Origin: an uncultured Acidimicrobiales bacterium
Lineage (GTDB): Bacteria; Actinomycetota; Acidimicrobiia; Acidimicrobiales; SZUA-35
Length of the DNA stretch: 64,000 nt
Reading direction: 5' to 3'
NCBI GenBank assembly: GCA_937922805.1
Contig: CALAJV010000001.1
Coordinates: forward strand, 98,560 to 162,559
A program made the translations under genes and the position numbers. The stretch's first letter is position 1; each line of letters begins with the position of its first letter. Below the pieces are notes generated by a model. It was not told the origin of the DNA and searched no databases. It saw only the letters and a list, made by a program, of their open reading frames with translations. Shown one piece after another: positions 19,916 to 36,268 of this stretch.

Positions 19916-21093
19916 GCAAACACATATCCCGGACCGTCGTTGCCGTCTTGTTGGTGGCCGCTCTTCTATCAACTACCGGCAGTCAGGCCTCAGCCCACGA
20001 ACCAAGCTGCGGCGACCACCCAAACCAAAATAGGGGTTTGGTCGTATCTTCGAGACAGAGTTTAACCGGTGAGCAAGTTGGCAACGCTCGACTAATAATG
20101 GGGGTCGCTCAACAAAGGCGCCTACCTCGGATAGCAGCCGAAGTGGCGATCACGGCCGCACTGCAAGCCTCGTCGCTTAAGAACTCTCCTGGTAACAACC
20201 TAGGGCTGTTTCAGCAAACTCCTCGTTACTACCCTGGCGTGGCTATCTCCTCGCCTGGTGGAGCTACCAATGCCTTCTATGACCGGCTCATCACGGTCCC
20301 ACGATGGCGAACTACCCCAATCGCAACAACTGCCCGAACTGTGCAGGCTGCCAAGGCGACAAGAGCATTTACGAACGCCGCTCCTATCGCAACGGTGGTT
20401 GTTGACCGGTGGTGGGGCAATCCTGATAACCCAACCGAATGCCCTACCGGCGACCCGTCCACCAACGGCACCGACCAATCAAGCAGCGACACCAACCCTT
20501 CATCAGCAACGAGTGCGTCAGCACCAAGTTCGGCCGCAACGAGTTCGCCAGCAGCGAGTGGCTCAAACGGGGCAACCGGCCAATCGAACAGCCAAGCGAG
20601 TGGCAACAGGTCCAGTGCCTCACGTAACTCACCAACCACGACCCAGAGAAGTTCGGCCAAAAAATCGACAACAGTCCGAAAGATAACGCCGCCCCGGATC
20701 TCCACCGTCGCCGGGACGAATCGAGTCACGGTTCGCGGCATCGTCGTGAATCGAACGATTGGCAGCAACCTTCAACGCCTTCTGACCGCAGCAAGTGAAG
20801 ACGGCCTTACCCTTACCGGCTCTGGCTGGCGCGATCCTGCCCGCCAAATAGCACTTCGAAAACAGAACTGTGGCCGGAGTACGTTTGCCATCTATCAGAG
20901 GTCGCCCAGCCTTTGTAAGCCTCCGACTGCCCGACCAGGAACGTCGAACCATGAGAAGGGCCTTGCCGTCGATTTTCGAAATTGCAGCACCCGTTCGACC
21001 GCATGCTACAAGTGGCTGAAAGCCAACGCCAGCAAATACGGCCTCCGGAACTTGCCGTCGGAGCCGTGGCACTGGAGTGTCAACGGGCGTTAG
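19912..21093 (+). CDS. Secreted peptidase M15 (VanY / D-alanyl-D-alanine carboxypeptidase-like) with Ser-rich linker
   Basis: Signal peptide AVLLVAALLSTTGSQASA. C-terminal motifs GSGWRDPARQ, PGTSNHEKGLAVDF and EPWHW are typical of M15B/VanY zinc peptidases. The ATG at 19912 overlaps the upstream stop. Confidence 0.75.
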   Translation: MSKHISRTVVAVLLVAALLSTTGSQASAHEPSCGDHPNQNRGLVVSSRQSLTGEQVGNARLIMGVAQQRRLPRIAAEVAITAALQASSLKNSPGNNLGLFQQTPRYYPGVAISSPGGATNAFYDRLITVPRWRTTPIATTARTVQAAKATRAFTNAAPIATVVVDRWWGNPDNPTECPTGDPSTNGTDQSSSDTNPSSATSASAPSSAATSSPAASGSNGATGQSNSQASGNRSSASRNSPTTTQRSSAKKSTTVRKITPPRISTVAGTNRVTVRGIVVNRTIGSNLQRLLTAASEDGLTLTGSGWRDPARQIALRKQNCGRSTFAIYQRSPSLCKPPTARPGTSNHEKGLAVDFRNCSTRSTACYKWLKANASKYGLRNLPSEPWHWSVNGR

Positions 21094-24000
21094 CGGCCAG
21101 CGAAATTCACCTGGGGGCTTGGTGTCGATGGGGTAACGCCAAGGTCAATTATCGGAGCGTGGTATCCGGTTTGGGAGCGGTAGTACGGCCACTGACTAGC
21201 TAACAACTCCTCAAGCCCACCGGGTAACGCGCACCGACGAACCATCTCTACTATCTCGGCGCACGACCCAGATGAAATCGACGAACCATCAATAGTCGTG
21301 TAGTCGCGAGCCAACGCTTCGGCAACTACTAACCCAGGGATTCCTCGCCCAAGACCTTCCAAGATGGCCGAACTCGCAACCGACAGTGACACGAACATCA
21401 TGTTGGGAAGGGCTAACCGTAGCGGATGCTCAACTACTGTCTTCCACTCAACCGAGCCGTCAATGACTCGATCTAACCAAGCTTCGTTCTCACCGCTCAA
21501 CCCTTTGGGCTTAAAGTAGATTTCGATATTGCAGTCGTTTTTAAGCTGTTCTAGCCCATTGAAGAACTTGTTGTAAGCCACCTCATGTTGGGACTGGTGC
21601 ACAAAAGGCATCAACCCAAGAGTGTTCTTTCCGCCCAGAATGACTACAGACAAAGGCTCATTGGGGTCGATGAGTTGCATCGTCGGCGTGTCGAGCATGA
21701 GGTCGGGCCGATGGGCCACTTCCACATCCGGGAATCGAGCTTTCCACGTCTCGCAGCCAACTTGTGTAACAGCGTTAACCCGATCGAAGGTATCCCGATG
21801 CCGAGCTTGGACATCAACTGGATTGGCCGAGTGAGGCCACAACGTTACGTTGCCTCCTCGGGACGAAACTGCGGCCGCGAAAACCGTCGTCTCCATGTAC
21901 AAATTGTCAGCTACGTGCGCTTGTTTCACCTGGCGAAGGTCGACTTCAGCCACACAGAGTTCATACATCTCATTGAGGCTAGGCAGCAGCATCTCTCCCA
22001 ACCAGTCAAGCCAATCCCCCTCGATCGGTACTGTTAGTCCAAGTTGGGTCTGACTTGTCTCGTTGGCACCAACCAGGTCGGAGGATTCAAACCAAGCGAC
22101 CGTGTCGTAGTCATATTTGAATACTGGGAGCAGCGATCGCGGCGGCAGGAACGTCGCCGACAAGTCCAACGGTTCGAACGTAGTCCGATCGTAGGCAAGA
22201 CCTTGGATTACGTAGCCGCTGGCATACACCAACGGGTCGACCAGTTCATCAACCACAGTTTGAATCGAACGGATGCCGGCGGGCACGACGGCTACTTCAG
22301 TATTTTCTTTATCGACTTCTTTCGTTGTGCCCCGGCTACGCAGCAGCACCGGGCTCGGTCTTAGCACCAGTGAATTGAGTTCATTCCATTGATACGGATC
22401 TGATCGCTGATTCACAAAGCAACAAAAGAATACGTTCGCTCCCAGTCGGTAAAGCTCCCGATAGAGATAAAACTGTCCGATCTCTGTTGGCGTAAACGAA
22501 CTCATGTATTCAATCGGCTTGCCTGAAAGCTCAACAAAGACGGGGTCGGTTCCGGCCTCTTTCGCTATCGAAGCTGCCAGGCGACGGACCGGCTCGCGAA
22601 CACACAGCTCAGCGTAGATTAGTCGGAACACGGCTTCGGTCAGCATTGGGCCAGCTAGGTCGGTCTGGCTTTCGAACCGTGACCGGAACTCGTTGGCCAA
22701 CTCAAGTGCTTCTCGCTCTAGCGGCACCGAACCTTGAGGCATCTCAGGCCATAGTTCTGCTTCGCTTTGAAGTCGAATTCGTTCCTCGACCACGTTGGCT
22801 GAAAAGAAGCGACCACCTTTTACTAGGAGCTCAAGACTGGTCTCTTGGCAGACGTTGAATTGGCGGTACTCCATCGTCGGACGAACCCGACTAATCGGAG
22901 CAGCGGCGGCAAACGAAACTTCCATCGCTTGGATCTCATCACGAAGAGCTTGGTTGGCCATTGATTCTGGCAACGTCGACCAGACCGGGATGCCGCTGGG
23001 CTGTCCAACGATCGGTTTCGATGCTTCCAAAGTGAACAAAGCCAGCCGATATTTGAGTCGAGCGTGACGAGGGTAGACGGCAACACCTTGCCGAAGAATC
23101 GCTAGCGCTCGGCTACCAGAGCCAACGCGAATCAAAACGTCAGCAAGAGCCAAATAGAGCGTGGCAGAAGCCGATACCGCTCCTCCATTGCCAGCTACCC
23201 AACTGTCTGCGAACCGACGCCAATGACCTTCATGCCATTCCAAATCAGCGGCCTTCTCTGGCAACGTTACTAGTGGCAATAGTTGGTCGTTATCAAACTT
23301 CTCGGCGTTGCGTTCATCCTCGCTAGTTACGAGATCCTGCCATCGTTTCAACGCAGTTGGCCAGTCATTTTCAATCATGGCCTCTTGAGCCCACCGACTT
23401 AGCGAACCGGCACTTGATGGCCATTGCTCAACGGCAAGTCGACATATTTCCTTTGCTTTGTTGTACTTGCCGTCAGATCTATAGACATGAGCTAATCGAC
23501 CATAGACTCTTGGGTCAACGGCCGGATCTCGCTTGATCGCTGCCTCCAAATAGGAAGCCGCTTCCGAGTAATTCCGCACTTGCAACAAGACGTTTGCCAG
23601 CTCTATTAGCGCTAGGCCGTCATGTCGGAAGGCTTCGCTCGTTTGGTGTAGAACCTCAATCGCCTCGTCTCGGCTGCCTTCAGCTGCTAACCCCTGAGCG
23701 AACGCTACATACGAGTCAGCACCTACCGCGTGACCGTGACGCTCGATTACGGTCCGATACCGAGAAACAACGTCGGCGCTGTTCTTGGCCTTTTTCGCCA
23801 GCGCAGCCCATTCCAAATCAAGTTCTATTTGGTGGCCCAATGCAGTCCAGCCGGAGTAGATAGCCCGATCGGCTCCAATCAAGTTACCGGCCTTGAACCG
23901 GCAGATCGCCAGCTTGATATAGACGACTGAATCAAGCTCACCGTAGTGACCGATCAACCATTCAAATCGGCGGACAGCCTCGACCCACCGAGACGCCGAC

Positions 24001-24797
24001 ATCGCCACCTGGGCCCATTCGAAATCAAACCGCTCAGAACGACCGTGTTTCTCCCAACCCTCCATGATCGCAACATCAGCCGCGGCATAGTGACCAATGG
24101 CTTTGTTGGCAACAGCTAGCTTCAGGTAGATAACCGGAGGCGCGTCGTTGTGATTGGCTAGAACCCATTTGAGCCGCTCGATTGCCTCAGTCCACTGCTG
24201 AGCTTTGATGGCGATTTGAGCGTGTTCAATATCGAGTCGCTGCAACCTACCATGCACAGCCCAGCCTTCGGCGATGGCCTTGTCTGCCCCATCAAAATCC
24301 CCAAGGTCACTCTTGGCTATGGCAAGCTTGACATAGGCCACCGGGGGCAACTTTTCCGTGGTACTGGTGAGTTCTTCCAGCCGTGATGCAGCTGCGCCCC
24401 AATCTCGTTGCTTCATAGCGATATCGGCCCATTCCACCGCAATGATCGATGAATCCGGGAAACGGGCCCGACCAGCGAGAATCACTACCTCAGCACCATC
24501 AAGGTCGCCTTGTTCCCGGTGGGCTATCGACACCCACACATACAGCTGCGGAGTTACATCAACATGGTCGAGCAATGGCGTTAGCCGTTCCACCACTTCC
24601 GACCATTGCTGGTCACGAAACGCCGCCTCGGCCGCGGCGACATCCGAACCATTAGAGGTTGGACCTTGTTTTTGGCCATCGGCTCCCGGATCATCCTGAG
24701 CTTGGCTTCGCCGCCCGAACTTCCGGATCTTCATCACAGGCAAAGGCTTTCGTTCGACGCTTTTTTCTCGACCACTAAAACTTGATAAGACGGCCAC
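21090..24797 (-). CDS. 1235-aa protein with N-terminal TPR/Sel1-like tandem repeats and a C-terminal region resembling a GT-B-type (capsule-synthesis/KpsS-like) glycosyltransferase half
   Basis: There are at least four repeats of about 70 aa, with the pattern EWAxxAxxxxxWxEAxxRxxW...YxKLAxxxxxxGxxxxADxAIxxGWxxHGR. The C-terminus contains VVILGGKN...IYFKPKG...MFVSLSVASSAILEGLGRGIPGLV, a Rossmann-like pattern. The gene is transcribed divergently from pseB. Confidence 0.55.
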   Translation of the reverse strand: MAVLSSFSGREKSVERKPLPVMKIRKFGRRSQAQDDPGADGQKQGPTSNGSDVAAAEAAFRDQQWSEVVERLTPLLDHVDVTPQLYVWVSIAHREQGDLDGAEVVILAGRARFPDSSIIAVEWADIAMKQRDWGAAASRLEELTSTTEKLPPVAYVKLAIAKSDLGDFDGADKAIAEGWAVHGRLQRLDIEHAQIAIKAQQWTEAIERLKWVLANHNDAPPVIYLKLAVANKAIGHYAAADVAIMEGWEKHGRSERFDFEWAQVAMSASRWVEAVRRFEWLIGHYGELDSVVYIKLAICRFKAGNLIGADRAIYSGWTALGHQIELDLEWAALAKKAKNSADVVSRYRTVIERHGHAVGADSYVAFAQGLAAEGSRDEAIEVLHQTSEAFRHDGLALIELANVLLQVRNYSEAASYLEAAIKRDPAVDPRVYGRLAHVYRSDGKYNKAKEICRLAVEQWPSSAGSLSRWAQEAMIENDWPTALKRWQDLVTSEDERNAEKFDNDQLLPLVTLPEKAADLEWHEGHWRRFADSWVAGNGGAVSASATLYLALADVLIRVGSGSRALAILRQGVAVYPRHARLKYRLALFTLEASKPIVGQPSGIPVWSTLPESMANQALRDEIQAMEVSFAAAAPISRVRPTMEYRQFNVCQETSLELLVKGGRFFSANVVEERIRLQSEAELWPEMPQGSVPLEREALELANEFRSRFESQTDLAGPMLTEAVFRLIYAELCVREPVRRLAASIAKEAGTDPVFVELSGKPIEYMSSFTPTEIGQFYLYRELYRLGANVFFCCFVNQRSDPYQWNELNSLVLRPSPVLLRSRGTTKEVDKENTEVAVVPAGIRSIQTVVDELVDPLVYASGYVIQGLAYDRTTFEPLDLSATFLPPRSLLPVFKYDYDTVAWFESSDLVGANETSQTQLGLTVPIEGDWLDWLGEMLLPSLNEMYELCVAEVDLRQVKQAHVADNLYMETTVFAAAVSSRGGNVTLWPHSANPVDVQARHRDTFDRVNAVTQVGCETWKARFPDVEVAHRPDLMLDTPTMQLIDPNEPLSVVILGGKNTLGLMPFVHQSQHEVAYNKFFNGLEQLKNDCNIEIYFKPKGLSGENEAWLDRVIDGSVEWKTVVEHPLRLALPNMMFVSLSVASSAILEGLGRGIPGLVVAEALARDYTTIDGSSISSGSCAEIVEMVRRCALPGGLEELLASQWPYYRSQTGYHAPIIDLGVTPSTPSPQVNFAGR

Positions 24798-24877
24798 GTT
24801 ACCAGTCTCTTGCTGAGTTATGGTTACATTTCAGTGCATCAATAGACGCATGTTCGCCGCCGCTTGGAGATATCGCT

Positions 24878-25882
24878 TTGTTCGATAACAAGACCATTCT
24901 AGTTACCGGTGGTACCGGTTCATTTGGAAGACAATTCACCGAAACCATATTGAATCGGTACTCACCAGCCAAGATCATCATCTACAGCAGAGACGAACTA
25001 AAGCAGTTTGAGATGCAGTCGACCGAGCCGTTTGCCTCTAATAAGGGGGTTTTGCGGTGGTTTATCGGCGACGTGAGGGATGAACCCCGATTGCGGATGG
25101 CGATGGAAGGGGTCGACTACGTTGTCCACGCCGCTGCCCTCAAACAGGTACCAGCCGTCGAATACAACCCGTTTGAGGCAGTCAAGACCAATATAATTGG
25201 CGCAGAAAACATTATTAATGCTTGTATGAGCAGCAACGTGCATCGCGTTATAGCGTTAAGCACAGATAAGGCCGCTGCACCAATAAATCTTTATGGTGCA
25301 ACAAAGTTGGCGTCGGACAAGTTGTTCATCGCCGCCAACAATCACCGCGGGTCACGCGACATTCGCTTTTCAACCGTTCGGTACGGCAACGTGATGGGCA
25401 GTCGAGGCTCGGTCATCCCCTTCTTCCAGAAGAAGGCCACGTCCGGAGTTATTCCGGTAACCGATGAACGAATGACGCGCTTCAACATCACGCTCCAACA
25501 AGGGGTCGATTTCGTAATCTCATGCTTCGATCGAATGTGGGGCGGTGAAACGTTCGTGCCGAAGATTCCTTCTTATCGAATCCTCGACGTCGCCGAAGCC
25601 GTCGACCCAAACGCCGCGGTCAAAACTGTGGGTATACGCCCCGGCGAAAAACTACACGAAGAGATGATTACTCGAACCGATTCACTCATGACAGTCGAGT
25701 TCGACGACTACTTCGTGATCCTTCCATCATCGGAACAATGGAACGTCGATGACTTCCGCCGAGATAGCGGGTCGAGCAAAGGCCGCTCGGTCAAAGACGG
25801 TTTCAACTACAGCAGCGACAAAAACCCTGACTTCTTGACCGTTGAAGACATTCGCGCCCTGATCGAATCGGAACTGCGGTAA
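24878..25882 (+). CDS. pseB: UDP-N-acetylglucosamine 4,6-dehydratase (inverting)
   Basis: FDNKTILVTGGTGSFG, IIIYSRDELKQ, FIGDVRD, HAAALKQVP, ALSTDKAAAPINLYGATKL, VRYGNVMGSRGSV. The track ORF starts at 24782, which would overlap the divergent gene. The in-frame TTG at 24878 gives the canonical N-terminus. Confidence 0.85.
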   Translation: MFDNKTILVTGGTGSFGRQFTETILNRYSPAKIIIYSRDELKQFEMQSTEPFASNKGVLRWFIGDVRDEPRLRMAMEGVDYVVHAAALKQVPAVEYNPFEAVKTNIIGAENIINACMSSNVHRVIALSTDKAAAPINLYGATKLASDKLFIAANNHRGSRDIRFSTVRYGNVMGSRGSVIPFFQKKATSGVIPVTDERMTRFNITLQQGVDFVISCFDRMWGGETFVPKIPSYRILDVAEAVDPNAAVKTVGIRPGEKLHEEMITRTDSLMTVEFDDYFVILPSSEQWNVDDFRRDSGSSKGRSVKDGFNYSSDKNPDFLTVEDIRALIESELR

Positions 25883-27036
25883 TGTCCTACGTTCCGTATG
25901 GACGTCAAGTAATTGACGAAGATGACATAGCCGCTGTTGCTGATGTACTGCGGGGCGATTGGCTTACTACCGGACCAATGGTCGACGCTTTCGAAGCCGC
26001 CTTCTCATCGTTCGTAGATGCCGACTACGGCGTGGCAGTAAGTAACGGCACCGCAGCGCTACATCTGGCGATGTTGGCGGCAAACGTGGGTCCGGGGGAC
26101 GAAGTCATCGTTGCCGCGCTGACGTTTGCTGCGAGCGCCAATTGCGCTAGGTACGTTGGCGCCGATGTCGTCTTTGCTGATGTGGACGAAAAGACCTTGA
26201 CTATCGACACCGATCACGTTGCGTCGCTGATAACCGAACGAACAAAGGCAATCGTTGCTGTTGACTACGCCGGAATCCCTTGTGATTTGGATGAGCTTCT
26301 GGCTCTAGCGAGCGTTCACGATTTGGTCCTCATCGAGGATGCTTGCCACGCTCCAGGCGCTCAGTACAAAGGCCGCCCGGTCGGATCCATCGCTCACATG
26401 TCAACGTTCAGCTTTCACCCGGTCAAACACCTGACCACCGGTGAGGGCGGCATGGTTACGACCAATGACCCAGAGCTGGCGAATCGGGTTCGCAAGCTTC
26501 GAAGCCATGGAATCAGTACCGACTTCCGGGAGCGAGTTGAACAAGGAACTTGGGCCTATGACATGGTCGAGCTCGGATTCAACTACCGACTACCTGACTT
26601 GAACTGCGCTCTTGGACTATCCCAGCTTGAGAAGATGACCGGCTGGATTGATCGGCGGCAGCAGTTGGTCGCTAACTACAATCTGGCATTCGAAAAATTG
26701 GATCACGTTCGCACCCCAAGCCATCCCGACGACCGGGTCAGCACCTGGCACCTATACCCGTTTCGATTTACCGGCGAAGACGCCAACACGCTCCGGTCCG
26801 AAATGTTCGATCGGCTGCGAGCCGAAGGCATCGGGGTCAATGTTCACTACCTCCCGGTGTACTGGCACAGCTACTACCAAGGGTTGGGTTACAAACGAGG
26901 GCTTTGCCCCAAGGCCGAAGCGGCGTACGGCGGATTGCTTTCACTGCCAATGTGGCCTGGGCTTTCCGATCAATCCCAGAACCGCGTTATCGAGACTCTG
27001 ATCTCGAACTGTGAGGATCTCTTTGCTCTCCGATGA
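25882..27036 (+). CDS. pseC: UDP-4-amino-4,6-dideoxy-N-acetyl-beta-L-altrosamine transaminase (DegT family)
   Basis: The N-terminal PYGRQVIDEDDI...GDWLTTGPMV is characteristic of PseC. The FSFHPVKHLTTGEGG segment holds the PLP lysine. Its ATG overlaps the pseB stop by 1 nt. Confidence 0.85.
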   Translation: MSYVPYGRQVIDEDDIAAVADVLRGDWLTTGPMVDAFEAAFSSFVDADYGVAVSNGTAALHLAMLAANVGPGDEVIVAALTFAASANCARYVGADVVFADVDEKTLTIDTDHVASLITERTKAIVAVDYAGIPCDLDELLALASVHDLVLIEDACHAPGAQYKGRPVGSIAHMSTFSFHPVKHLTTGEGGMVTTNDPELANRVRKLRSHGISTDFRERVEQGTWAYDMVELGFNYRLPDLNCALGLSQLEKMTGWIDRRQQLVANYNLAFEKLDHVRTPSHPDDRVSTWHLYPFRFTGEDANTLRSEMFDRLRAEGIGVNVHYLPVYWHSYYQGLGYKRGLCPKAEAAYGGLLSLPMWPGLSDQSQNRVIETLISNCEDLFALR

Positions 27037-27742
27037 GTTATCCCCGACCGTAGCGATTGTTCCGGCCCGGGCTGGAAGTAAACGGATTCCAGGCAAGAAC
27101 ATCAAGCCGTTCTTGGGCACACCGTTGATCTCTCGAACAATCGAGACGCTTCGCAAGTCTCAAATCTTCGACCGCATCGTCGTATCTACCGACGGGGTAG
27201 ATATTGCCGAGATAGCGACCGCAGCCGGCGCCGATGTACCGTTCGTCCGGCCAGCAGATCTGTCTGACGACTACGCCACAACCGACGCAGTGATTCGCCA
27301 CGCAATCCAGCAGGTGGAAGCCGAAGGAACGACGCTTGGATTTGTATGTGTTGCGTACCCCGGTGCCATCTTGTCGACTGCCGACGATTTTCGTCGCTCC
27401 TATGAACTTATCCGTGGCGACGAATACGATTTCGTTTTTACCGCAACCAGCTTTCCATACCCAATTCAACGGGCGCTAAAGCGGCATAGTGACGGTTCTT
27501 GTGAGATGTTTGAACCGGCCGAGCTGCTAACTAGATCACAAGATCTAGAAGAGGCGTTTCATGACGCCGGACAGTTCTACTGGGGTCGAAGAGACGCGTG
27601 GGCATCGGGCAAAGCCGTATTCACGAGCCGGTCGCTGATGTATGAACTTCCCCGCCATCGGGTTCAAGACATTGACACCCCACAAGACTGGGAGCGGGCT
27701 GAGCTTCTCTATCGACTGCTGGAGTTATCTGATGTCAACTGA
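27011..27742 (+). CDS. pseF: Pseudaminic acid cytidylyltransferase (CMP-sugar synthetase family)
   Basis: VAIVPARAGSKRIPGKNIKPFLGTPLI and IVVSTD motifs. It overlaps the end of pseC. The exact start is uncertain (GTG 27011 or TTG 27023). Confidence 0.8.
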   Translation: MRISLLSDELSPTVAIVPARAGSKRIPGKNIKPFLGTPLISRTIETLRKSQIFDRIVVSTDGVDIAEIATAAGADVPFVRPADLSDDYATTDAVIRHAIQQVEAEGTTLGFVCVAYPGAILSTADDFRRSYELIRGDEYDFVFTATSFPYPIQRALKRHSDGSCEMFEPAELLTRSQDLEEAFHDAGQFYWGRRDAWASGKAVFTSRSLMYELPRHRVQDIDTPQDWERAELLYRLLELSDVN

Positions 27743-28910
27743 GCTGTTCTCTTTAACTGGCACAACGGTTGTTCCTCTACCTGGCGCGTTCTTGGCTCCG
27801 GTGCTACCGAGCGATGCGACGCTTCTCATTCGGTCCGACGCTTCTCACCACATCGGTGCCGGGCACATCATGCGGTGTGTTGCCCTTGCTCAGGAATGGG
27901 CGTTTCGAGGCGGCACCGTACTGGTTGCCTCGAACGAACTAACAGAGTCGACCCAGTCCAAGTTGGATGCCAACAACATCGTGTCGATACATGTAGGGCC
28001 CAGCGGACAAGACTTCCGAGAACTAGCCGACGAAATCGGTCCGACCTGGATCGTGCTCGACGTTGGCGTAGCGGTACATGAACACTTAGCCGCCATTGGC
28101 GATGCCTACGATGTCTTGGCCATCGATGACCTTGGCGGCCGGTTTGCGACTAGCCCTACGCTCGTACTCAATCAGAATGCTCACGGGCCATCAACCCCCT
28201 ACGCTGGCATCCAGCCAAACAAGTTGTTGCGGGGCCTTGAGTACATTTTGCTTCGAGACGAGTTTTTGGATGAACAGCCTTCGGTTTGCGGCACCGAACC
28301 AACTGTTCTCGTTGCCATGGGTGGAACCGACCCGTTGCAACTACTCCCCGATCTAATCGACTCCCTCGCTTCCAGCTCAAAAGCAAAGATCTTGGCTGTT
28401 GCCAGCTCCCACCACCCCCAGCTCAATCGACTGGAAGAACTCAACCAGGGCCACCAACGAGTTGAGCTTCACCTCGATGTTTCAAACATGGCCCAGCTTA
28501 TGAAGCAGTGCGACCTAGCTCTGACCTCGGGTGGGACGACCGTTTGGGAACTGGCTTATCTCGGCATACCTTCTGTCGTGGGAGCGGTAGCCGAGGTTGA
28601 AGATCGCCTTTTAGACGGCTTGAATCGGATCGATTTGTTCGAAACGATTGGACCGCTCGAAAACAAGACTGCTGAAGCCATCGCCGAGATCGTATTGCAA
28701 GTTGAGCAGGATCAAGAGTGGCTCAAAGCCACACGGACAAAAGCCCAAGAGATAGTGGATGGACACGGGCGACTCCGCGTTCTAGATCGGATGACATCTG
28801 CATCTCGCCTGGCCGACCTTCCTATCGACTCTTCCATCAACGACCGACCAAACGGTCCAGATGTTGAGGCCCAATCGGCGATGAACAACACCGCCGTTAC
28901 CAGCTCCTAG
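27732..28910 (+). CDS. pseG: UDP-2,4-diacetamido-2,4,6-trideoxy-beta-L-altropyranose hydrolase
   Basis: LLIRSDASHHIGAGHIMRCVALAQEW is the PseG N-terminal signature. C-terminal SGGTTVWELAYLGIP fits a GT-B/MurG-like fold. The ATG at 27732 overlaps the pseF stop (ATGTCAACTGA), and the track's upstream extension to 27642 is unlikely. Confidence 0.75.
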   Translation: MSTELFSLTGTTVVPLPGAFLAPVLPSDATLLIRSDASHHIGAGHIMRCVALAQEWAFRGGTVLVASNELTESTQSKLDANNIVSIHVGPSGQDFRELADEIGPTWIVLDVGVAVHEHLAAIGDAYDVLAIDDLGGRFATSPTLVLNQNAHGPSTPYAGIQPNKLLRGLEYILLRDEFLDEQPSVCGTEPTVLVAMGGTDPLQLLPDLIDSLASSSKAKILAVASSHHPQLNRLEELNQGHQRVELHLDVSNMAQLMKQCDLALTSGGTTVWELAYLGIPSVVGAVAEVEDRLLDGLNRIDLFETIGPLENKTAEAIAEIVLQVEQDQEWLKATRTKAQEIVDGHGRLRVLDRMTSASRLADLPIDSSINDRPNGPDVEAQSAMNNTAVTSS

Positions 28911-28992
28911 GCCGCCGGCGGCCTACTAGCTACTTCTGTTACTTACCTACTCGTCATATTTCTAGTTCAAGAGCAAAATTGATCGGAGCACA

Positions 28993-29943
28993 ATGGTTAA
29001 CAAACCAAGAGCCTTGGTTACCGGCGCGGCCGGTGTGATCGGGCGTCAGCTGACCAAGCGTCTACTGAACGACGGCCACGAGGTGATGGCCATCGACCGC
29101 AAGGTCATGCCAGATTTGGATTGGGGCAAACTTGAGTTCATTCAAGGCGACCTGTCCGAAATGGACCTGTCTGAGGCAGAGAAGTTTCAGCCCGAGGCCG
29201 TGTTCCACTTGGCTGCATCGTTCGAACGATCCGAGGAGTCGGCCGAGTACTGGGATATCGGCTGGCGCGACGACGTTGTTTCGTCTCACCGGGTTATCGA
29301 TTCTCTGGCTCGATCAGCTCATACCAGAACTTTTGTCTTTGCTTCCAGCTATTTAACCTACGAACCATCCCTGTACCTGTTCGATGCCCCCAACGACAGT
29401 CCGGCGTCGCTGAACGAAATCGACCGGGTAAGCCCTCGCAATCTTTGTGGAGCAGGCAAGTACTACACCGAACAAGAGCTGGCCTACGTTACCAACACCA
29501 CTCGACCCGACCTTCGGGTCGTCAACGCCCGCATCTACCGGGTATACGGCAAAGGGTCCCGCGACGTTATTTCCCGATGGATCGAAGCAGGACTGGCCGG
29601 AGAAACGATCGAGGTTTACAACAAGTCCAACCGATTCGACTACGTCTTCGCTGACGACGTCGCTGAGTCACTTCATCGCCTCCAGCAACAGAGCGAAGCA
29701 AGCGGTGTGTACAACATTGGTACCGGGTCGACCTCTTCTATCTCTGAGGTGGTCGAAGCGCTGAAACAAGCCGAAGTGCTGTCCCCGTCCCAAATTGTCG
29801 AGCAAGGGGAATCAGCACCGTTCGAAGCAAGCAAAGCTGACGTACGTAGGCTTCGCGAAGATATCGGCTGGACGCCTCCTACTACGCCGCTAGAGGGCAT
29901 CCGCCAAATCTCAGCGGCGTTGCAAGGAGCGGACCTTGTCTAA
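28993..29943 (+). CDS. NAD-dependent epimerase/dehydratase family protein (extended SDR)
   Basis: N-terminal Rossmann motif LVTGAAGVIGRQL. About 316 aa, typical of sugar-nucleotide epimerases and reductases. Confidence 0.75.
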   Translation: MVNKPRALVTGAAGVIGRQLTKRLLNDGHEVMAIDRKVMPDLDWGKLEFIQGDLSEMDLSEAEKFQPEAVFHLAASFERSEESAEYWDIGWRDDVVSSHRVIDSLARSAHTRTFVFASSYLTYEPSLYLFDAPNDSPASLNEIDRVSPRNLCGAGKYYTEQELAYVTNTTRPDLRVVNARIYRVYGKGSRDVISRWIEAGLAGETIEVYNKSNRFDYVFADDVAESLHRLQQQSEASGVYNIGTGSTSSISEVVEALKQAEVLSPSQIVEQGESAPFEASKADVRRLREDIGWTPPTTPLEGIRQISAALQGADLV

Positions 29944-30901
29944 GACCCGCTCTAATGAACAATCGCCAAGCCCAACCAGCTCTGGAGTCGAGGAGTCAGT
30001 TGTGATCAGTGAAACGGCGGAGGTAGTAGTCGACCCCGAGTGGGGCTACATTCGCCTGAACCCAATTCCGGCCGAGGACGATCTCGCCGCCTTCTACCAG
30101 AGTTCCTACTACGACTCGTTAAGGCAGGGCAACCGAGCCCCGGATCTGAGTCGGATGCAACAGGGTGGTCCAGAAGCCGAGCGAGAACGAGCGTGGATTT
30201 GCGAAACGGTGCATCACGACATCATCGAATGGGCGGTGACCTATCACGGGGAGACTGGCTGTGTCCTGGAAGTAGGATCGGGCGGAGGCGAACTTCTTGA
30301 TTCGTTCGCGGCCCAAGGGTGGACCGCCAAAGGCTTAGAGCCTGCGGCTCAGGCCGCCGAGAACTGCCGGGCTCGAGGGTTGGATGTTCAAGCGCTAACG
30401 CTTGAACAATATCTGACTCAGATCTCCCCAAATGACGTGGACATTGATGTCGTGGTTCTTCGACTAGTTCTTGAACACGTGCGGAACCCAATCGAGCTGT
30501 TGCAAAACTGTCACCAGGCACTTAGGACCGGGGGCCTGCTGATAGTTGAGGTACCGAACGACTTTAACGGGTTCCAAAAAGCAGCCCAGGCCAAACTCGA
30601 TCTCGATCAATGGTGGGTGGCGAGTCCGGACCATGTCAACTATTTCGACTTTGACTCTCTGTCCAACATCTTGGAGCGAATCAGTTTCGACATCGTCGAC
30701 CGGACGACCAGTTTCCCAATGGAGCTATTTCTTCTCATGGGTGACAACTACGTCGGAGACTCCGACGTAGGATCGGCCTGCCACGAACGCAGGCGAAGTC
30801 TTGAGCTAAACATGCCTCATCGAGTTCGACAAGAGTTCTACCGGGCACTAGCGGGAGCAGGGATGGGACGGACCTGCCGGATCGCCGCGGTGGCGAAATG
30901 A
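29936..30901 (+). CDS. Class I SAM-dependent methyltransferase
   Basis: SAM-binding motif VLEVGSGGGELLD and post-I acidic residue pattern. It overlaps both neighbouring genes. Confidence 0.75.
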   Translation: MSKTRSNEQSPSPTSSGVEESVVISETAEVVVDPEWGYIRLNPIPAEDDLAAFYQSSYYDSLRQGNRAPDLSRMQQGGPEAERERAWICETVHHDIIEWAVTYHGETGCVLEVGSGGGELLDSFAAQGWTAKGLEPAAQAAENCRARGLDVQALTLEQYLTQISPNDVDIDVVVLRLVLEHVRNPIELLQNCHQALRTGGLLIVEVPNDFNGFQKAAQAKLDLDQWWVASPDHVNYFDFDSLSNILERISFDIVDRTTSFPMELFLLMGDNYVGDSDVGSACHERRRSLELNMPHRVRQEFYRALAGAGMGRTCRIAAVAK

Positions 30902-31857
30902 ACGTTCTTATTACCAGTGCGTCCAGAAAGGTCTCGCTTGTCGATTCTTTTTCGGAAGCGTTGGGCGGCAGGGGAAACGTTATTGCCGCTGACATCACCC
31001 AGTGGGCCGCAGCAATGCATGTTGCTGACCAATCGGTGATCGTGCCTAGGAGCGACTCCGGCGACTTTGTAAAAGCGATTCTCGAAATCTGCGAGGAACT
31101 GAACGTTGGTCTGGTAATCCCAACTCGGGACGAAGAGCTGCCGATCCTGGCCAAGGCCATCGACGATTTCACTGCGATAGGCACCCGAGTTCACGTTTCG
31201 TCACCGCAATCGATAGCTTCGTGCTTGGACAAACGAGCCTTTCACCAATTCTGCCTGGAGCATGGCTTTGCTATCCCCACCGTCGTAGCCGACCCAGGAG
31301 CGACTAATGCTCCCCTATTTGTTCGACCCCGATTCGGCAAAGGCAACACCGGAACCTACGCGGTTCAAACCCCAAGCGAATTAGCACAACTTCAACAACA
31401 GTGGCCGACGATTGCCGACGCAGTAGTTGTAAACCATCTAATGGACGCGCCAGAATTCACCATTGATGTGTTCTTGGCTTTGGACGGCGTAGCCACGTCG
31501 GCTGTGCCCCGAGAGCGGATGCAAGTAGTGGCGGGTGAGAGCTACGTTGGGCGGACGGTTAACGATCCCGAGCTCGCAGCCGAATCGATCCGGCTGTGCC
31601 AAATGATGGGTTTGACCGGCCACAACACGGTCCAGGCTTTCCGAACTCCAAACGGTTTCGAGTTCATCGAGGTAAATCCCCGGTTCGGTGGCGGAGCCGC
31701 CCTGAGCATGGCGGCCGGAGCCCCAAGCCCTCGCTGGCTGATTCAAGAAACCGCTGGCATACCGTTTGATCCGGCGCCCGGGTCGTTCCAGCCTGAGCTT
31801 GTCATGTTGCGTTACACCCGAGATGTTTGGATATCTGAGTCGGAGCTGGCCCAATGA
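30898..31857 (+). CDS. ATP-grasp domain protein
   Basis: Pre-ATP-grasp N-terminus (MNVLITSASRKVSLV...GLVIPTRDEEL). Central DKRAFHQFCLEHGFAIP...FVRPRFGKG. C-terminal FIEVNPRFGGG is typical of ATP-grasp ligases. ATGA overlaps on both sides. Confidence 0.7.
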   Translation: MNVLITSASRKVSLVDSFSEALGGRGNVIAADITQWAAAMHVADQSVIVPRSDSGDFVKAILEICEELNVGLVIPTRDEELPILAKAIDDFTAIGTRVHVSSPQSIASCLDKRAFHQFCLEHGFAIPTVVADPGATNAPLFVRPRFGKGNTGTYAVQTPSELAQLQQQWPTIADAVVVNHLMDAPEFTIDVFLALDGVATSAVPRERMQVVAGESYVGRTVNDPELAAESIRLCQMMGLTGHNTVQAFRTPNGFEFIEVNPRFGGGAALSMAAGAPSPRWLIQETAGIPFDPAPGSFQPELVMLRYTRDVWISESELAQ

Positions 31858-32666
31858 CCGCTACCAGCCAAAGCAACCCAATTCCTCGGTCAACCGATCG
31901 AGTTGGAACCAAGCAGGGATCTATTCACGACCGCGACCTTTATCGCCGCCGAACCGGCGATCGGCCAGTTGTTGAATCAGTCATCTTTGACCTCGACGAC
32001 ACCTTATATAACGAAATGACATTCGTTATAGGCGCCTTCACCGAGGTAGCAGTCTTCCTTGCTCAGCGAACCGGACTTGAAGCCAAGACACTTCTTGATC
32101 ATCTGCTGATGATCGAGCGGCGAGACGGTCGAGGTCAAGTATTCGAAACACTGCTGGCCAGCTACTCGCTCAACCCGAAATGGGCCAAAGCGATGCTAGC
32201 GACCTACCGTTCAGCCGTCCCACCACTGTCGTTTTTTGCCGACACGACTGCTCTTTTGACGTCGTTGTCAGCCGCCGGCATTCCGACCGCGGTTGTTACC
32301 GACGGATACGGCCTCGTACAGGCAAACAAAGCGGCCGGTCTTCATCTCGACACGCACGTTGATGCCATTGTTTATACCGACAGCCTGGGTCACGGTGGGG
32401 CCAAGCCAGGAACCGCCGGTTTCGAAACTGCATTAGCCATGATCGGCAGCGAGGAATCAACCTCTGCATATGTCGGCAACGACGTGACGAAAGACTTCAT
32501 AGGGCCACGACAACTTGGGATGCAGTCGGTCTTGATCAACCGCAAAACAATCGGCCGGGTCGAAGACCAACCAGCCTTTGCCCACCCAGACCACATCGTG
32601 CCCACGTTGTCTGATCTTCCCCGCGTTCTGAAATTCAAATCACCGCTCGATAGGAGAACAGCATGA
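31854..32666 (+). CDS. HAD-superfamily hydrolase
   Basis: Motif I VIFDLDDTLY, motif II VVTDG and a motif IV-like YVGNDVTKD. ATGA overlaps on both sides. Confidence 0.7.
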   Translation: MTATSQSNPIPRSTDRVGTKQGSIHDRDLYRRRTGDRPVVESVIFDLDDTLYNEMTFVIGAFTEVAVFLAQRTGLEAKTLLDHLLMIERRDGRGQVFETLLASYSLNPKWAKAMLATYRSAVPPLSFFADTTALLTSLSAAGIPTAVVTDGYGLVQANKAAGLHLDTHVDAIVYTDSLGHGGAKPGTAGFETALAMIGSEESTSAYVGNDVTKDFIGPRQLGMQSVLINRKTIGRVEDQPAFAHPDHIVPTLSDLPRVLKFKSPLDRRTA

Positions 32667-33721
32667 AAATCAACCAGCGAATCATCGACATTGATGAACC
32701 GATGTACATTATTGCCGAACTGTCGGCGAACCACGGTCAGGACCTCGACGTCGCCCTCGAAATGATCGAGGCCGCTGCTGCTTGCGGCGCCGACGCGGTC
32801 AAGCTCCAAACCTACACCCCAGACACCATCACGCTGGACGTCGCCGATGGCCCATTTTTGATTGAAGAAGGTTCGTTGTGGGCCGGACGATCGCTCCATG
32901 ACCTCTATCAAGATGCCTACACACCGTGGGACTGGTTTCCGACCTTGGCCGATGCCGCCAGCAAAGCTGGAGTGGACATTTTCTCAAGCCCGTTCGACCT
33001 AACCGCTGTTGCCTTCCTAGAAGGCCAAGACGTTCCAGCGTTCAAGATTGCGTCGTTTGAACTCGTCGATCACGCGCTTATTCGAGCAGTGGCCAACACC
33101 GGAAAGCCGATGATCATGTCAACCGGCATGGCTACGCTCTCTGAGATCGCCGAGGCGGTACAGGTTGCACGCGCTGCTGGCTGTAGCGATCTTGCCCTTT
33201 TGCGGTGCAACTCGGGCTATCCGACTCCGTTAACCGAAATGGATTTGCGAACGATCCCGAGCATGATATCGACCTTTGATTGCCCGATCGGTTTGTCCGA
33301 TCACACCGACGGCATTGAAGCGGCCATCGTCGGTCGAACTCTGGGCGCTTGCATTCTCGAAAAACACTTTGTCCTCGATCGGTCATCTGGCGCTCTCGAT
33401 GCAGAATTCTCCCTCGAACCAGATGAATTCGCGGCCATGGTTACCGGTATTCGACGAACCGAGGAGATGCTCGGCGCCGTTCGGTATGGGCCGACGGCTC
33501 GCGAGAAACATTCGCATGTCCACCGACGTTCACTTTTCGTGGCCGAAGATGTGCGCAAGGGTGAGACCTTCACCGATGCCAACGTTCGTTCGGTCCGTCC
33601 TGGTCAGGGTTTGGCGCCCAAGTTTCTGCCGATCGTCCTCGGATCCACGGCAACTCGGGATCTGAAGAAGGGCACGCCGGTTTCGTGGGAAGCCTTGTCG
33701 GGGGAACCGCTAACTTCATAA
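32663..33721 (+). CDS. pseI: Pseudaminic acid synthase
   Basis: IIAELSANHGQDL, GADAVKLQTY, FSSPFD, PAFKIASFE, GKPMIMSTGMATLSEI and LLRCNSGYPTP, plus a C-terminal SAF-like domain. Confidence 0.85.
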   Translation: MKINQRIIDIDEPMYIIAELSANHGQDLDVALEMIEAAAACGADAVKLQTYTPDTITLDVADGPFLIEEGSLWAGRSLHDLYQDAYTPWDWFPTLADAASKAGVDIFSSPFDLTAVAFLEGQDVPAFKIASFELVDHALIRAVANTGKPMIMSTGMATLSEIAEAVQVARAAGCSDLALLRCNSGYPTPLTEMDLRTIPSMISTFDCPIGLSDHTDGIEAAIVGRTLGACILEKHFVLDRSSGALDAEFSLEPDEFAAMVTGIRRTEEMLGAVRYGPTAREKHSHVHRRSLFVAEDVRKGETFTDANVRSVRPGQGLAPKFLPIVLGSTATRDLKKGTPVSWEALSGEPLTS

Positions 33722-33886
33722 CGCCGCTCGGTGTTAAACAACCGAGCTGGGAAAACCGTCCTACTTTCGAATAGCCTTACGCCGTAGGATTGGGAATCGA
33801 CCTCAGCTACACTGGACTTGGGTCGGATCACTGGTCAGGCCTGTACGCAAGCAAAAATGCGATTGCTAGGTGGGATTAGCAGCGTT

Positions 33887-35074
33887 ATGTCAACAGACAG
33901 ATTTTCAATCTTTTTCGGTTGCGCAGTAGATCAAGTTCGGCGACCGTTTCACAATCGAAAACCGACGCAATCTATACTGTCGTTGGTTCTGATCGCCGCG
34001 TTCGGACTCGTTCTTGGTGCGTGTGCAGGCCCATTGTTTTCCGGTGGCGATGGGGTTCAGGATAATTTGGAACCACCAACGAGATCCGTGGTTACCGGAC
34101 CCATTGCCAGCCAAAGCGATGTCCCCACCCCAATCTCAGCGTTTTCTACCTCCGCCATCCGCAACACATCTACTGAAGTCACAGATAGGAGCGGGACGTT
34201 TCACCGGGCTGGGATACAGCACCAACAGAACCAGGAATGGGAACAAGCAATTCGTAGCTATACCAAAGCAATAAACGAGAACCCGGCCCACCCTGACGCC
34301 TATTTCAATCGCGGCTCGGCCAACCAGGTGCTCGGCAGACATGGCGCTGCTATTACCGACTTCAGCGCCCATATTCGGCTCAACCCCACCGACCCAAGAG
34401 CATTCAACAACCGGGGACTGTCCAACCAAGCTCGTGCTAGCTACACCGATGCGCTTCAAGACTTCAACCAAGCTTTGCGACTCGATCCAACGCTGGCAGC
34501 GGCCTACGCCAACCGGAGCCAATCACTGTTCTGGCTCGATGAATTCGAAATGGCACGCATCGATCTTGAACTGGCGATCAGTTCTGGCGCCGACCATCCA
34601 GACATTTACTTCAACCTCGGCTTACTCCACTATTCGATGGGCCAACCCGACGAGGCACTATCTAGCTACGGTCGAGCGTTATCTCTTGCTCCTGACGCTC
34701 CGTGGATTTTCCACGAACGAGGCCTGATCTATTTCGAGATGGGAGATCTTCCAAAGGCGCAGTTAGACCTTGAAGCAGCCATCTCGCTCGACCCCAAAAA
34801 TCCCAAGCCTCACTATGATCTTGGCCTACTCCAGCATCATCAGGGACAAACCAAGCCGGCGATTGGCAAATATACGGTGGCGCTCCAACTTGATCCATAT
34901 CATTGGGACGCTCGACAGAACCGGGCAGTCGCCTACGCTGCGACTAAACAGAACCAGCGAGCAATCCAAGATCTTGACCGGCTTCTGGGCAACTCTGAGT
35001 TGTCCGATTCTGCCCGAGCCGAGATCGACCAGTGGATCGCTACCCTCGAGGCTGGTCAAAATCCATTCTCGTAA
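33887..35074 (+). CDS. TPR-repeat lipoprotein
   Basis: Lipobox GLVLGAC-AG. Eight or more canonical 34-aa TPR units (AxxxYxxAIxxNPxxxxAYxNRG pattern). The ATG at 33887 is preferred, while the track ORF begins at 33818. Confidence 0.7.
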   Translation: MSTDRFSIFFGCAVDQVRRPFHNRKPTQSILSLVLIAAFGLVLGACAGPLFSGGDGVQDNLEPPTRSVVTGPIASQSDVPTPISAFSTSAIRNTSTEVTDRSGTFHRAGIQHQQNQEWEQAIRSYTKAINENPAHPDAYFNRGSANQVLGRHGAAITDFSAHIRLNPTDPRAFNNRGLSNQARASYTDALQDFNQALRLDPTLAAAYANRSQSLFWLDEFEMARIDLELAISSGADHPDIYFNLGLLHYSMGQPDEALSSYGRALSLAPDAPWIFHERGLIYFEMGDLPKAQLDLEAAISLDPKNPKPHYDLGLLQHHQGQTKPAIGKYTVALQLDPYHWDARQNRAVAYAATKQNQRAIQDLDRLLGNSELSDSARAEIDQWIATLEAGQNPFS

Positions 35075-35152: not shown

Positions 35153-36268
35153 ATGATTCTTGACTCCTTAGATGTCAGCCAAGACGCGTTTGAGACCGGA
35201 ACCGGTTGGGAGATCAAACCTGAAGGAGCGTGCAAGGGCGACGTTTGTATTCCGCTACCCTCGCCGCCCGAAGCGGGCCGAGTTGACGTTGAATCGATCG
35301 CCGACCAAATGGGCCTTCCACTAGTGGGCGACCCAGAGCGTTCTGTTTGGGCCCTTGGTCCCGAGTCAGTCGGCGCCCGAACTTTGTTGAGCGCACAGGC
35401 CCCAGAGCTACGGTTGCCCGATCTAAACGGCAACCAATTCACTCTTTCGTCTTTACGAGGATCCAAGGTGGTAATGGTGGCATGGAGCCCCTATTGAGGA
35501 TGCTCTGCTGATCTGCCCGTGTGGCAGGCCTTTCGCGAAGACGTCGCCGACCAAGGCGTCGAGATAGTAACCGTGGCATTAGAAACGACTGGGGCAGAGG
35601 CGTGCCGGCAATTCATTGAAGCCGCCAATCCCGCTCACCCATCGCTGATCGACCAGTATCATAAATCGGCCGAACTGTTCGGCTTCGTCAATATCCCGAA
35701 TGCAGTCTGGATCGATGAAGACGGCATGATCGTTCGACCGTCGGAGCCTGCTCCCGCTCCACCGTCAATGAAAGCGGACCGACCGAACATTTTCGCCGAC
35801 CTTGTTCCGCCCCAGCGCCTGCTCGACATCATGGGCGAGGCCGTCAAAATTCGATCCAACCCGGCGGCCTACGAAGCGGCGTTACGGGATTGGTTCACCA
35901 ACGGTAGTCAAAGCCAATTCGCCATGACCCCGGATGAGGTAGTCAATCGATCGCAGCCTCGCAGCGCTGACGAAGCACGGGGCCAGGCCAACTTCGAACT
36001 TGCGGCCCATTTCGAAGCGAACGGCGATCACGATGCCGCCATTCCCTACTATCGAGAAGCGCATCGGCTGACCCCTGAAAACTTCAGCTATCGACGTCAG
36101 GCGTGGTCGCTAGAACCCAACGAACTTGATGGTCCAGTGGCCAGATTTTGGCAGGGTCCAGCCGTTGGAGCAGAAGACGCCTGGCCCTACGAAGGTGACT
36201 GGCTAAGCGACGTTAAAGCCATGGGGGCCGAAAACTACTATCCAGAGTTCAAGGCCGAACAGGCCTAG
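35153..36268 (+). CDS. Thioredoxin-fold (ResA/redoxin-like) protein with in-frame UGA at the redox motif, a candidate selenoprotein (alternatively a split or pseudogenised gene)
   Basis: ORFs 35153-35497 and 35519-36268 share one frame and are separated only by TGA at 35495-35497. Read through, the sequence is KVVMVAWSPY-[TGA]-GCSADLPVWQAF...VEIVTVAL...IPNAVWIDEDGMIVR, a complete redoxin fold with the stop at the position of the nucleophilic Cys. Confidence 0.55.
35512..35528 (+). other. Hairpin downstream of the in-frame UGA (bacterial SECIS-like)
   Basis: tctgcc-cgtgt-ggcagg forms a 6-bp stem (including one G-U pair) with a 5-nt loop containing GU. It starts 14 nt after the TGA. Confidence 0.4.

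Follow-up and report, generated by a model that had tools for sequence, protein, structure and literature searches.

A pseudaminic acid operon of an uncultured Acidimicrobiales bacterium with a predicted ATP-grasp ligase and a HAD-family phosphatase in the position of pseH

The DNA analyzed here, a window of 64,000 nucleotides from the genome of an uncultured marine Acidimicrobiales bacterium (contig CALAJV010000001.1, positions 98,560 to 162,559), carries a gene cluster for a pseudaminic-acid-type sugar that lacks the acetyltransferase gene pseH. Positions 24782-33721 are filled by nine co-directional open reading frames (ORFs) on the plus strand, most of them overlapping, which encode PseB, PseC, PseF, PseG, an SDR-family protein without the Tyr of the YxxxK motif (Tyr-less SDR), a SAM methyltransferase (MT), a predicted ATP-grasp ligase (AGR), a HAD-family phosphatase (HAD) and PseI, in that order (Table 1). 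The pseB/pseC junction reads TAATG, the SDR and MT genes overlap by 8 nt, ATGA is found at the MT/AGR, AGR/HAD and HAD/pseI junctions, and pseG is separated from the SDR gene by a gap of 82 nt. A first-pass annotation of the same DNA had described a nine-gene translationally coupled operon with these junctions and this single gap, and the ORFs and junctions confirm it; the two junctions that it did not list, pseC/pseF and pseF/pseG, are overlaps as well.

The canonical pathway to CMP-Pse5Ac7Ac (Pse, pseudaminic acid), known from Campylobacter jejuni and Helicobacter pylori, consists of PseB, PseC, PseH, PseG, PseI and PseF. Enzyme identity was judged by NCBIfam equivalog models with their curated cut-offs, and five of these six enzymes score above them in the window, the exception being PseH: PseB with 518.3 bits to TIGR03589 (cut-off 407.75; match from residue 34), PseC with 465 bits to TIGR03588 (cut-off 423.5), PseF with 290.4 bits to TIGR03584 (cut-off 205.7), PseI with 471.2 bits to TIGR03586 (cut-off 340.25) and PseG with 159.6 bits to TIGR03590 (cut-off 153.55; residues 60-318 of a long ORF). 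The signatures of these five enzymes had been called clear from the letters alone, and the models agree, though for PseG marginally. The PseI encoded here is the only PseI match in the genome. The cluster therefore shares with the canonical pathway its PseB, PseC, PseF, PseG and PseI and the order pseB-C-F-G-[slot]-I; it differs in the lack of PseH from both window and genome, in a slot filled by the Tyr-less SDR, MT, AGR and HAD, and in a PseG that barely exceeds its cut-off.

A Pfam scan detected no GNAT family match among the nine operon products, and the last 105 residues of PseG match no Pfam family at E ≤ 10 and include no fused acetyltransferase. A local PseH/GNAT profile, built from nine PseH-like or related GNATs, gave no match at E ≤ 0.01 when all frames of the 64-kb window were searched. 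The earlier statement that the operon holds no GNAT and that none is fused to PseG is thus borne out. It had been coupled with a proposal to search the genome for PseH-type GNATs; in the assembly (4,506,398 bases in 39 contigs, 94.12% complete) the best match to the PseH model TIGR03585 reached 19.6 bits (E 0.002) against a cut-off of 93.1, and PseH was not found.

The slot between pseG and pseI is normally occupied by pseH: at canonical loci PseH lies directly upstream of PseI (e.g. in genomes G363 and G416, and in at least 12 genomes of the class sample described below). Here the slot is taken up by SDR-MT-AGR-HAD. The AlphaFold2 model of AGR (pLDDT 92.8) gives Foldseek matches that are all ATP-grasp enzymes, and residues I257, E258, N260, P261 and R262 are invariant in 28 sequences, including an E-x-N that we take to be the metal site of the ATP-grasp fold. 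The closest solved relative is PDB 2pn1 from Exiguobacterium sp. 255-15, entitled 'carbamoylphosphate synthase large subunit (split gene in MJ)', with a profile match over the full length at E 8.6e-64 and a Foldseek match at E 6.6e-29 (TM 0.82). After 2pn1, the closest sequence is a carbamoyl-phosphate synthetase (E 7e-24) and the closest folds are biotin carboxylases, PurK and PurT (E about 1e-18, TM 0.70-0.75), with PylC and the D-Ala-D-Ala ligases as more distant relatives. The family is large, with 1,422 near-length homologues at E ≤ 0.001 and with 2,569, 9,189 and 19,183 cluster representatives, of 1.84 billion, at E ≤ 1e-30, 1e-10 and 1e-3, respectively. The phosphatase motifs of the HAD family are DxDxT (motif I), a Lys (motif III) and acidic residues (motif IV), and the window protein has them intact as DLDDT, AKP and GNDVTKD; it is without a close characterised relative, its best PDB match having an E value of 1.1e-8.

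Recurrence of this arrangement was examined by a scan for AGR in one genome per species, which found 593 relatives; the best 80 loci were inspected, with neighbours called by tblastn with the window's own proteins and PseI accepted at an identity of at least 45% within 6 kb. A HAD homologue directly follows AGR in 33 of these 80 best loci, PseI is found in 29 and the complete AGR-HAD-PseI trio in 25. Trio loci occur in Nitrospirota, Chloroflexota, Acidobacteriota, Verrucomicrobiota, Elusimicrobiota, Omnitrophota, Thermodesulfobacteriota, Pseudomonadota (Phenylobacterium, Chitinilyticum and Stellaceae) and archaea of the Methanobacteriaceae, and the AGR family is present in the cultured and harmless isolates Chitinilyticum piscinae 4Y14 and Phenylobacterium sp. 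LjRoot97. The flanking genes vary, MT being present in 14 and SDR in 10 of the 25 trio loci, both in 4, as in the window, and neither in 5. Five trio loci hold PseB, PseC, PseG, AGR, HAD and PseI alone; without SDR and MT, they mark AGR and HAD as the core, and since nothing accompanies the core enzymes there, the acid that AGR would use should be a common metabolite. The isolate C. piscinae 4Y14 has eight coupled genes, pseB-C-F-G-MT-AGR-HAD-pseI, and nothing else, and a Methanobacteriaceae genome has pseB-C-F-G-SDR-AGR-HAD-pseI. AGR relatives of lower identity come mostly from Planctomycetota and often stand beside DegT-type aminotransferases without HAD or PseI, which fits a family acting on amino sugars generally.

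Gene fusions tie the same proteins together. The 75 AGR homologues longer than 560 residues were sorted by precomputed Pfam labels, and domain order was scanned in 8 of them. AGR is fused to HAD in 64 of the 75; the others comprise one MT-AGR fusion, four SDR-AGR fusions, one AGR with a FemAB-like domain and five proteins in which about 330 N-terminal residues precede AGR, an extension that in P0180 is PseG-like. The fused partners are homologous to genes of the window: HAD to the fused domain of P0123 (40% identity, E 3e-46), MT to the MT-AGR fusion P0121 (46% identity, E 2e-78), SDR to the SDR-AGR fusion P0191 (38% identity, E 2e-61) and PseG to the PseG-like/AGR fusion P0180 (22% over 342 residues, E 2e-19). 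PseG, SDR, MT, AGR and HAD are therefore placed in one pathway, and the PseG-AGR fusion puts AGR next to the PseG step, where PseH acts. The fusions also argue for HAD working together with AGR.

The SDR protein is most similar among solved structures to MoeE5 (6kv9), a UDP-GlcA 4-epimerase-like enzyme (E 3.3e-24), and has a GxxGxxG motif. In alignment with MoeE5 and UDP-glucose 4-epimerases a Cys stands at the Tyr position of YxxxK, and the Lys is kept. The same position is C, T or V in all 14 members of the SDR family found in AGR loci (the window protein and 13 homologues, from loci L007-L032), which share the motif PRN[LVIM][CTV]GxxK[YLF]Y with its K-[YLF]-Y retained. This Tyr-less subfamily adjoins the ATP-grasp ligase gene or is fused to the ligase, and is a candidate for tailoring or for substrate binding. 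MT matches its family at residues 97-254 and carries an N-terminal extension of about 95 residues; it probably methylates the new side chain.

In the samples, PseH and the ATP-grasp module were not seen together. PseH exceeds its cut-off in none of the 37 genomes that carry AGR loci. Weak GNAT matches (E ≤ 0.001) occur in 28 of these genomes, the best at 64.9 bits, and the ten best weak PseH matches lie outside the AGR loci without pse neighbours. A class sample (Gammaproteobacteria-level, centred on the Chitinilyticum genome, 400 genomes scored) contains 36 genomes with PseI over cut-off; related genomes in our samples are not independent of one another. Among the 36, a TIGR03585-like GNAT (E ≤ 1e-8) lies within 3.5 kb of PseI in 17, mostly directly upstream and over cut-off in 8, and an ATP-grasp gene lies beside PseI in 3, namely G027 (the centre of the sample, hence a biased case), G026 and G665, whose ATP-grasp is distant. 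In none of the 36 do a PseH-like GNAT and an ATP-grasp gene both lie next to PseI, and the other 16 belong to neither set. In the locus of G665 (L128 3499-7133) a methyltransferase gene is followed by a gap of about 800 nt and then, immediately upstream of PseI, by the distant ATP-grasp, which shares 24% identity with AGR; the locus has neither HAD nor PseH. In the window's phylum PseI is over cut-off in 11 of 401 genomes, this one included; in the other 10 and 3 borderline genomes PseH exceeds its cut-off twice, both times directly upstream of PseI, and G087 has AGR 3.7 kb from PseI. The tally of weaker PseI matches in this phylum takes in one unpublished genome, G125, on which no claim rests.

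A separate AGR-type lineage of PseI was considered and rejected. In a quick maximum-likelihood tree of 61 PseI sequences the AGR-type and PseH-type loci interleave: the labels change 11 times, and branches with support require no fewer than 4 of these changes. The PseI of Chitinilyticum groups as sister with one from a PseH-type genome (SH-aLRT 94), and the PseI of G665 nests among those of PseH type. The interleaving argues that AGR and PseH modules have been swapped repeatedly on a shared pathway. The first-pass annotation had left two possibilities, that pseH lies elsewhere or that the 4-amino group is acylated differently. This alternative is supported, not proven, and the comparative data favour its second half because of the position of the module, the lack of PseH over cut-off from AGR-locus genomes, the non-overlapping locus types and the AGR fusions.

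We consider it somewhat probable that the nine genes provide a PseH-free route to a CMP-activated pseudaminic-acid-type sugar, with steps in the following order. PseB and PseC would convert UDP-GlcNAc to UDP-4-amino-4,6-dideoxy-beta-L-AltNAc. AGR would then acylate the free 4-amino group, whose nitrogen is N7 in the later nine-carbon sugar, using ATP and a non-acetyl carboxylic acid in place of acetyl-CoA. The acid would probably be a phosphorylated hydroxy acid of central metabolism, with 3- or 2-phosphoglycerate as the first guess and phosphoglycolate, phospholactate or phosphoserine as alternatives. HAD would strip the phosphate to leave, for example, an N-glyceroyl group, MT would probably O- or N-methylate the new side chain and the Tyr-less SDR would have an accessory role, after which PseG would remove UDP, PseI would condense the hexose with phosphoenolpyruvate and PseF would add CMP. 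The parts of this scheme are not equally secure. After PseB and PseC, the 4-amino group is the one nucleophile still free, and in the absence of PseH the ATP-dependent ligase of the slot is the natural candidate to cap it; the support for action on this amine comes from genomic context, the fusions and the lack of PseH from AGR-locus genomes, and we rate as fairly probable the proposal that AGR stands in for PseH there. The close association with a phosphatase points to an acid that is phosphorylated when it reaches the ligase and loses its phosphate once it has been ligated, while the choice of phosphoglycerate, and with it an N-glyceroyl group, is tentative and more apt to be wrong than right.

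Several observations weigh against this scheme. About 6% of the genome is unassembled. Elsewhere in it are two NeuD/PglD-type acetyltransferases (TIGR03570; 160.8 and 149.2 bits) and eight Acetyltransf_3 GNATs, none of the latter on the window's stretch. GNATs accompany AGR-HAD in 2 of the 25 trio loci (L025 and L032) and in L021, L024 has an Acetyltransf_6 gene next to PseI, in G087 a GNAT-like ORF is found at a distance of about 4 kb from PseI, and two of the 64 AGR-HAD fusions carry an N-terminal GNAT (GNAT-AGR-HAD). AGR need not replace PseH in such loci, where it may add to acetylation, or where the new side chain may be the substrate of the GNAT. TIGR03585 has a strict cut-off, with scores of 45-92 bits for many probable PseH genes next to PseI, and gene position was therefore used as a second criterion. 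All unexplained ORFs were Pfam-scanned in six related loci and in the others searched with the local PseH/GNAT profile, which could miss unlike GNATs. HAD is not adjacent to AGR in L012, L016, L007 and G665. Finally, the nearest structure, 2pn1, is an uncharacterised structural-genomics entry whose title assigns no function, and the nearest relatives of AGR after it use bicarbonate or formate, not phospho-acids.

The acetyltransferases allow another reading, which we hold to be unlikely: an unlinked enzyme, either a divergent GNAT or a PglD/NeuD-type left-handed beta-helix protein, would supply the PseH function, Pse5Ac7Ac would be made first, and SDR-MT-AGR-HAD would be an add-on for another position or for the finished or CMP-linked sugar. 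The candidates in the genome, its 94% completeness and the GNATs associated with AGR-HAD speak for it, as do the unlinked GNATs of G027 and G004 (63-65 bits to PseH). However, the best PseH-model match of the genome is far below the cut-off. One of the PglD-like genes lies in its own bacillosamine-type cassette, with a PglF-like dehydratase, a DegT aminotransferase, a Bac_transf phosphoglycosyltransferase and the hexapeptide acetyltransferase, and the second is surrounded by GT2, methyltransferase/deacetylase and sulfotransferase genes, i.e. by unrelated polysaccharide genes. The PseH counts in AGR-locus genomes, the class sample with its separate locus types, the five loci reduced to PseB, PseC, PseG, AGR, HAD and PseI and the exact placement of AGR-HAD in the pseH slot also argue against an add-on. 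The unlinked acetyltransferases thus keep the possibility of a pseH elsewhere alive without favouring it.

A second alternative accepts AGR as the replacement for PseH and gives it a different substrate. AGR would work like PurT or PurK and activate formate, acetate or bicarbonate, yielding e.g. Pse5Ac7Fo, or Pse5Ac7Ac without acetyl-CoA, and HAD would have another task such as hydrolysis of a nucleotide or sugar phosphate. The ranking of carbamoyl-phosphate synthetase, biotin carboxylases, PurK and PurT directly behind 2pn1 agrees with this, the weak matches of HAD include pyrimidine nucleotidases, and 7-N-formyl Pse exists in nature. Nevertheless, rank by fold similarity does not determine which substrate an ATP-grasp enzyme uses, the many AGR-HAD fusions point to a phosphate ester that the ligase step forms or carries, and the MT of 14 trio loci would be left without an obvious target on a formyl or acetyl group. 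We regard this reading as improbable. Very improbable, finally, is that the 4-amino group stays free through PseG and PseI and is acylated by AGR-HAD only afterwards, as N7 of free or CMP-linked Pse5Ac7N, or that part of the sugar remains an amine, which would suit the gene order (AGR-HAD after pseG and just before pseI) and the detection in other organisms of CMP-linked nonulosonic acids with a free amine, described in the accessible part of a preprint (bioRxiv 10.64898/2026.04.20.719630), but the PseG-AGR fusions and the SDR-AGR fusions, with an SDR of nucleotide-sugar type, fit the UDP-sugar stage better.

To return to acylation by AGR at the UDP-sugar stage, the PseH-less variant with AGR is widespread and probably gives the sugar a different side chain. 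One might go further and see in AGR and HAD the core of a widespread PseH-independent branch of pseudaminic acid synthesis in bacteria and archaea, in which phosphoglycerate or a similar phospho-acid is ligated and then dephosphorylated, with other phosphatases and with MT, the Tyr-less SDR and GNATs diversifying the side chain. Such a branch would provide the genes and enzymes that have so far been missing for N-glyceroyl and O-methylglyceroyl nonulosonic acids; this generalization we consider doubtful.

Elements of such a route have precedents in known systems. In Neisseria meningitidis, PglB2 has an ATP-grasp domain in place of an acetyltransferase domain and gives a 4-glyceramido sugar (PMC11130364, PMC6959607). 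As these articles present it in their accessible text, a ligase instead of an acetyltransferase caps the 4-amino group of a UDP-4-amino-4,6-dideoxy-HexNAc and an N-glyceroyl group replaces the N-acetyl group; the likeness to the window, drawn from the papers, is one of function. PglB2 differs in belonging to a pathway of bacillosamine type and in the fusion of its ligase to a phosphoglycosyltransferase. In the C. jejuni capsule, Cj1438C ligates a phosphorylated partner through an amide and the phosphatase Cj1435, termed a HAD phosphatase in the title of a reference listed in the same article, then removes the phosphate (PMC12409886). According to the available portion of that account, the pair resembles the proposed action of AGR and HAD in the logic of ligation followed by dephosphorylation, the comparison being one of logic and not of sequence; the sugar provides the carboxylate and the phosphorylated partner the amine in the Cj1438C reaction, whereas in our proposal the sugar would provide the amine. 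A genetically studied system of nonulosonate type, the sfmABCDE operon for flagellin modification in Shewanella oneidensis MR-1, brings together an ATP-grasp 'carboxylate-amine ligase', an SDR, a SAM methyltransferase and a PseI-like enzyme (PMC3765264). Like the window, this system is described in the accessible sections as having PseB and PseC and no clear PseH; unlike the window, it has a TPP enzyme and no HAD, it lacks clear orthologues of PseG, PseI and PseF, and its ATP-grasp protein is annotated as ATP-grasp_4. A heading in the same paper states that SO_3261-3264 are required for normal motility, and does not name the ligase gene. Among the texts searched, in the parts available, this paper alone combines ATP-grasp with nonulosonic sugar terms, and no description was found of an ATP-grasp/phosphatase pair replacing PseH in pseudaminic acid synthesis, although subscription papers may bear on the point.

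Cj1438C itself has the ATP-grasp fold. Pseudaminic acids, sugars that resemble sialic acids, are found on flagella, pili, S-layers and polysaccharides. How phages, antibodies and hosts recognise them is decided by their N-acyl groups, and many non-acetyl N7 groups are known chemically. The genetic basis of N7-glyceroyl Pse (Pse5Am7Gra), which occurs in Tannerella forsythia, was not known at the time of a report whose available text names it a major challenge (PMC5378307). If our proposal is correct, AGR and HAD would make the question directly testable for the N-glyceroyl group, genome predictions that score such loci as incomplete Pse pathways would be corrected, and an acetyl-CoA-independent enzyme would be available for Pse analogues.

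The positions of the genes are collected in Table 1. A Shine-Dalgarno-like GGAG or AGGAG precedes most of the chosen starts. For pseB, TTG 24878 is a more likely start than TTG 24782: it is preceded by GGAG, and residue 34 is the first that the model matches. The pseF start is likely TTG 27023, which has GAGGA upstream and overlaps pseC by 14 nt, the overlap being 26 nt from GTG 27011; the ATGA at 27033 is out of frame. The pseF/pseG overlap is 11 nt, counted from ATG 27732. The gap after pseG holds a GC palindrome without a T tract, so the operon may consist of two coupled blocks, pseBCFG and SDR-MT-AGR-HAD-pseI. An inverted repeat capable of forming a hairpin, again without a T tract, follows the pseI stop codon (33722-33760). 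A scan of 24300-34200 for consensus promoters and terminators found no signal above chance and, with fewer sites than in shuffled sequence, is uninformative.

Table 1. Features of the pseudaminic acid operon, its surroundings and a related cassette elsewhere in the genome
Feature	Position	Strand	Family matches or remarks
pseB, UDP-GlcNAc 4,6-dehydratase (inverting)	24782..25882	+	TIGR03589, PF02719
pseC, aminotransferase giving UDP-4-amino-4,6-dideoxy-beta-L-AltNAc	25882..27036	+	TIGR03588, PF01041
pseF, CMP-pseudaminic acid synthetase	27011..27742	+	TIGR03584
pseG, UDP-sugar hydrolase with low-complexity C-terminal tail	27732..28910	+	TIGR03590
Intergenic gap, the only one in the cluster, 82 nt	28911..28992	.	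holds palindrome GGCCGCCGGCGGCC
Extended SDR, nucleotide-sugar epimerase-like	28993..29943	+	PF01370
SAM methyltransferase, class I (MT)	29936..30901	+	PF13489
AGR, predicted ATP-grasp carboxylate-amine ligase	30898..31857	+	PF21360, PF15632, PF02655
HAD-family phosphatase	31854..32666	+	PF13419, PF00702
pseI, pseudaminic acid synthase	32663..33721	+	TIGR03586, PF03102, SAF domain
1235-residue TPR and GT-B-like protein, divergent from pseB	21090..24797	-	TPR families, fold matches
TPR protein, 418 residues	33818-35074	+	96 nt and hairpin after pseI
Two adjacent ORFs	35153-36268	+	NF041054 (151 and 306.8 bits)
NanM homologue	36274-37296	-	TIGR04371, 'putative sugar O-methyltransferase NanM' (148 bits, cut-off 44)
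Bacillosamine-type cassette	L110 5025-9515 (G000 contig 3, same genome)		PglD-like gene within

The protein encoded divergently from pseB has TPR families at residues 126-590 and no Pfam match in its C-terminal half. The AlphaFold2 model of its C-terminal 596 residues (pLDDT 85.3) matches GT-B glycosyltransferases best in Foldseek, among them TPR-linked protein O-GlcNAc transferases of bacteria, HMW1C, GtfA and SdgB, with E values of 3e-7 to 3e-5 and low TM scores of 0.26-0.34. The protein, for which 15 homologues were found, may on the basis of this model be a transferase for the modified sugar. A tblastn search with its C-terminal half gave no match in the 80 AGR loci, which places the gene outside the conserved module. 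Flagellin is an unlikely target of the sugar, since Flagellin_N has no match in the 94%-complete genome; its carrier is probably a different protein or a polysaccharide.

Downstream of the operon, the TPR protein is followed by two adjacent ORFs, one of which matches the first 115 positions of NF041054 ('ResA-like WAxxUGC motif-containing protein') and the other its last 230, which fits one selenoprotein gene split at an in-frame TGA. A further modification of the sugar may come from the NanM homologue, whose gene lies 2.5 kb downstream of pseI. Three marine-metagenome runs, one of them a possible origin of the DNA, contain the stretch as a whole; all are from one study.

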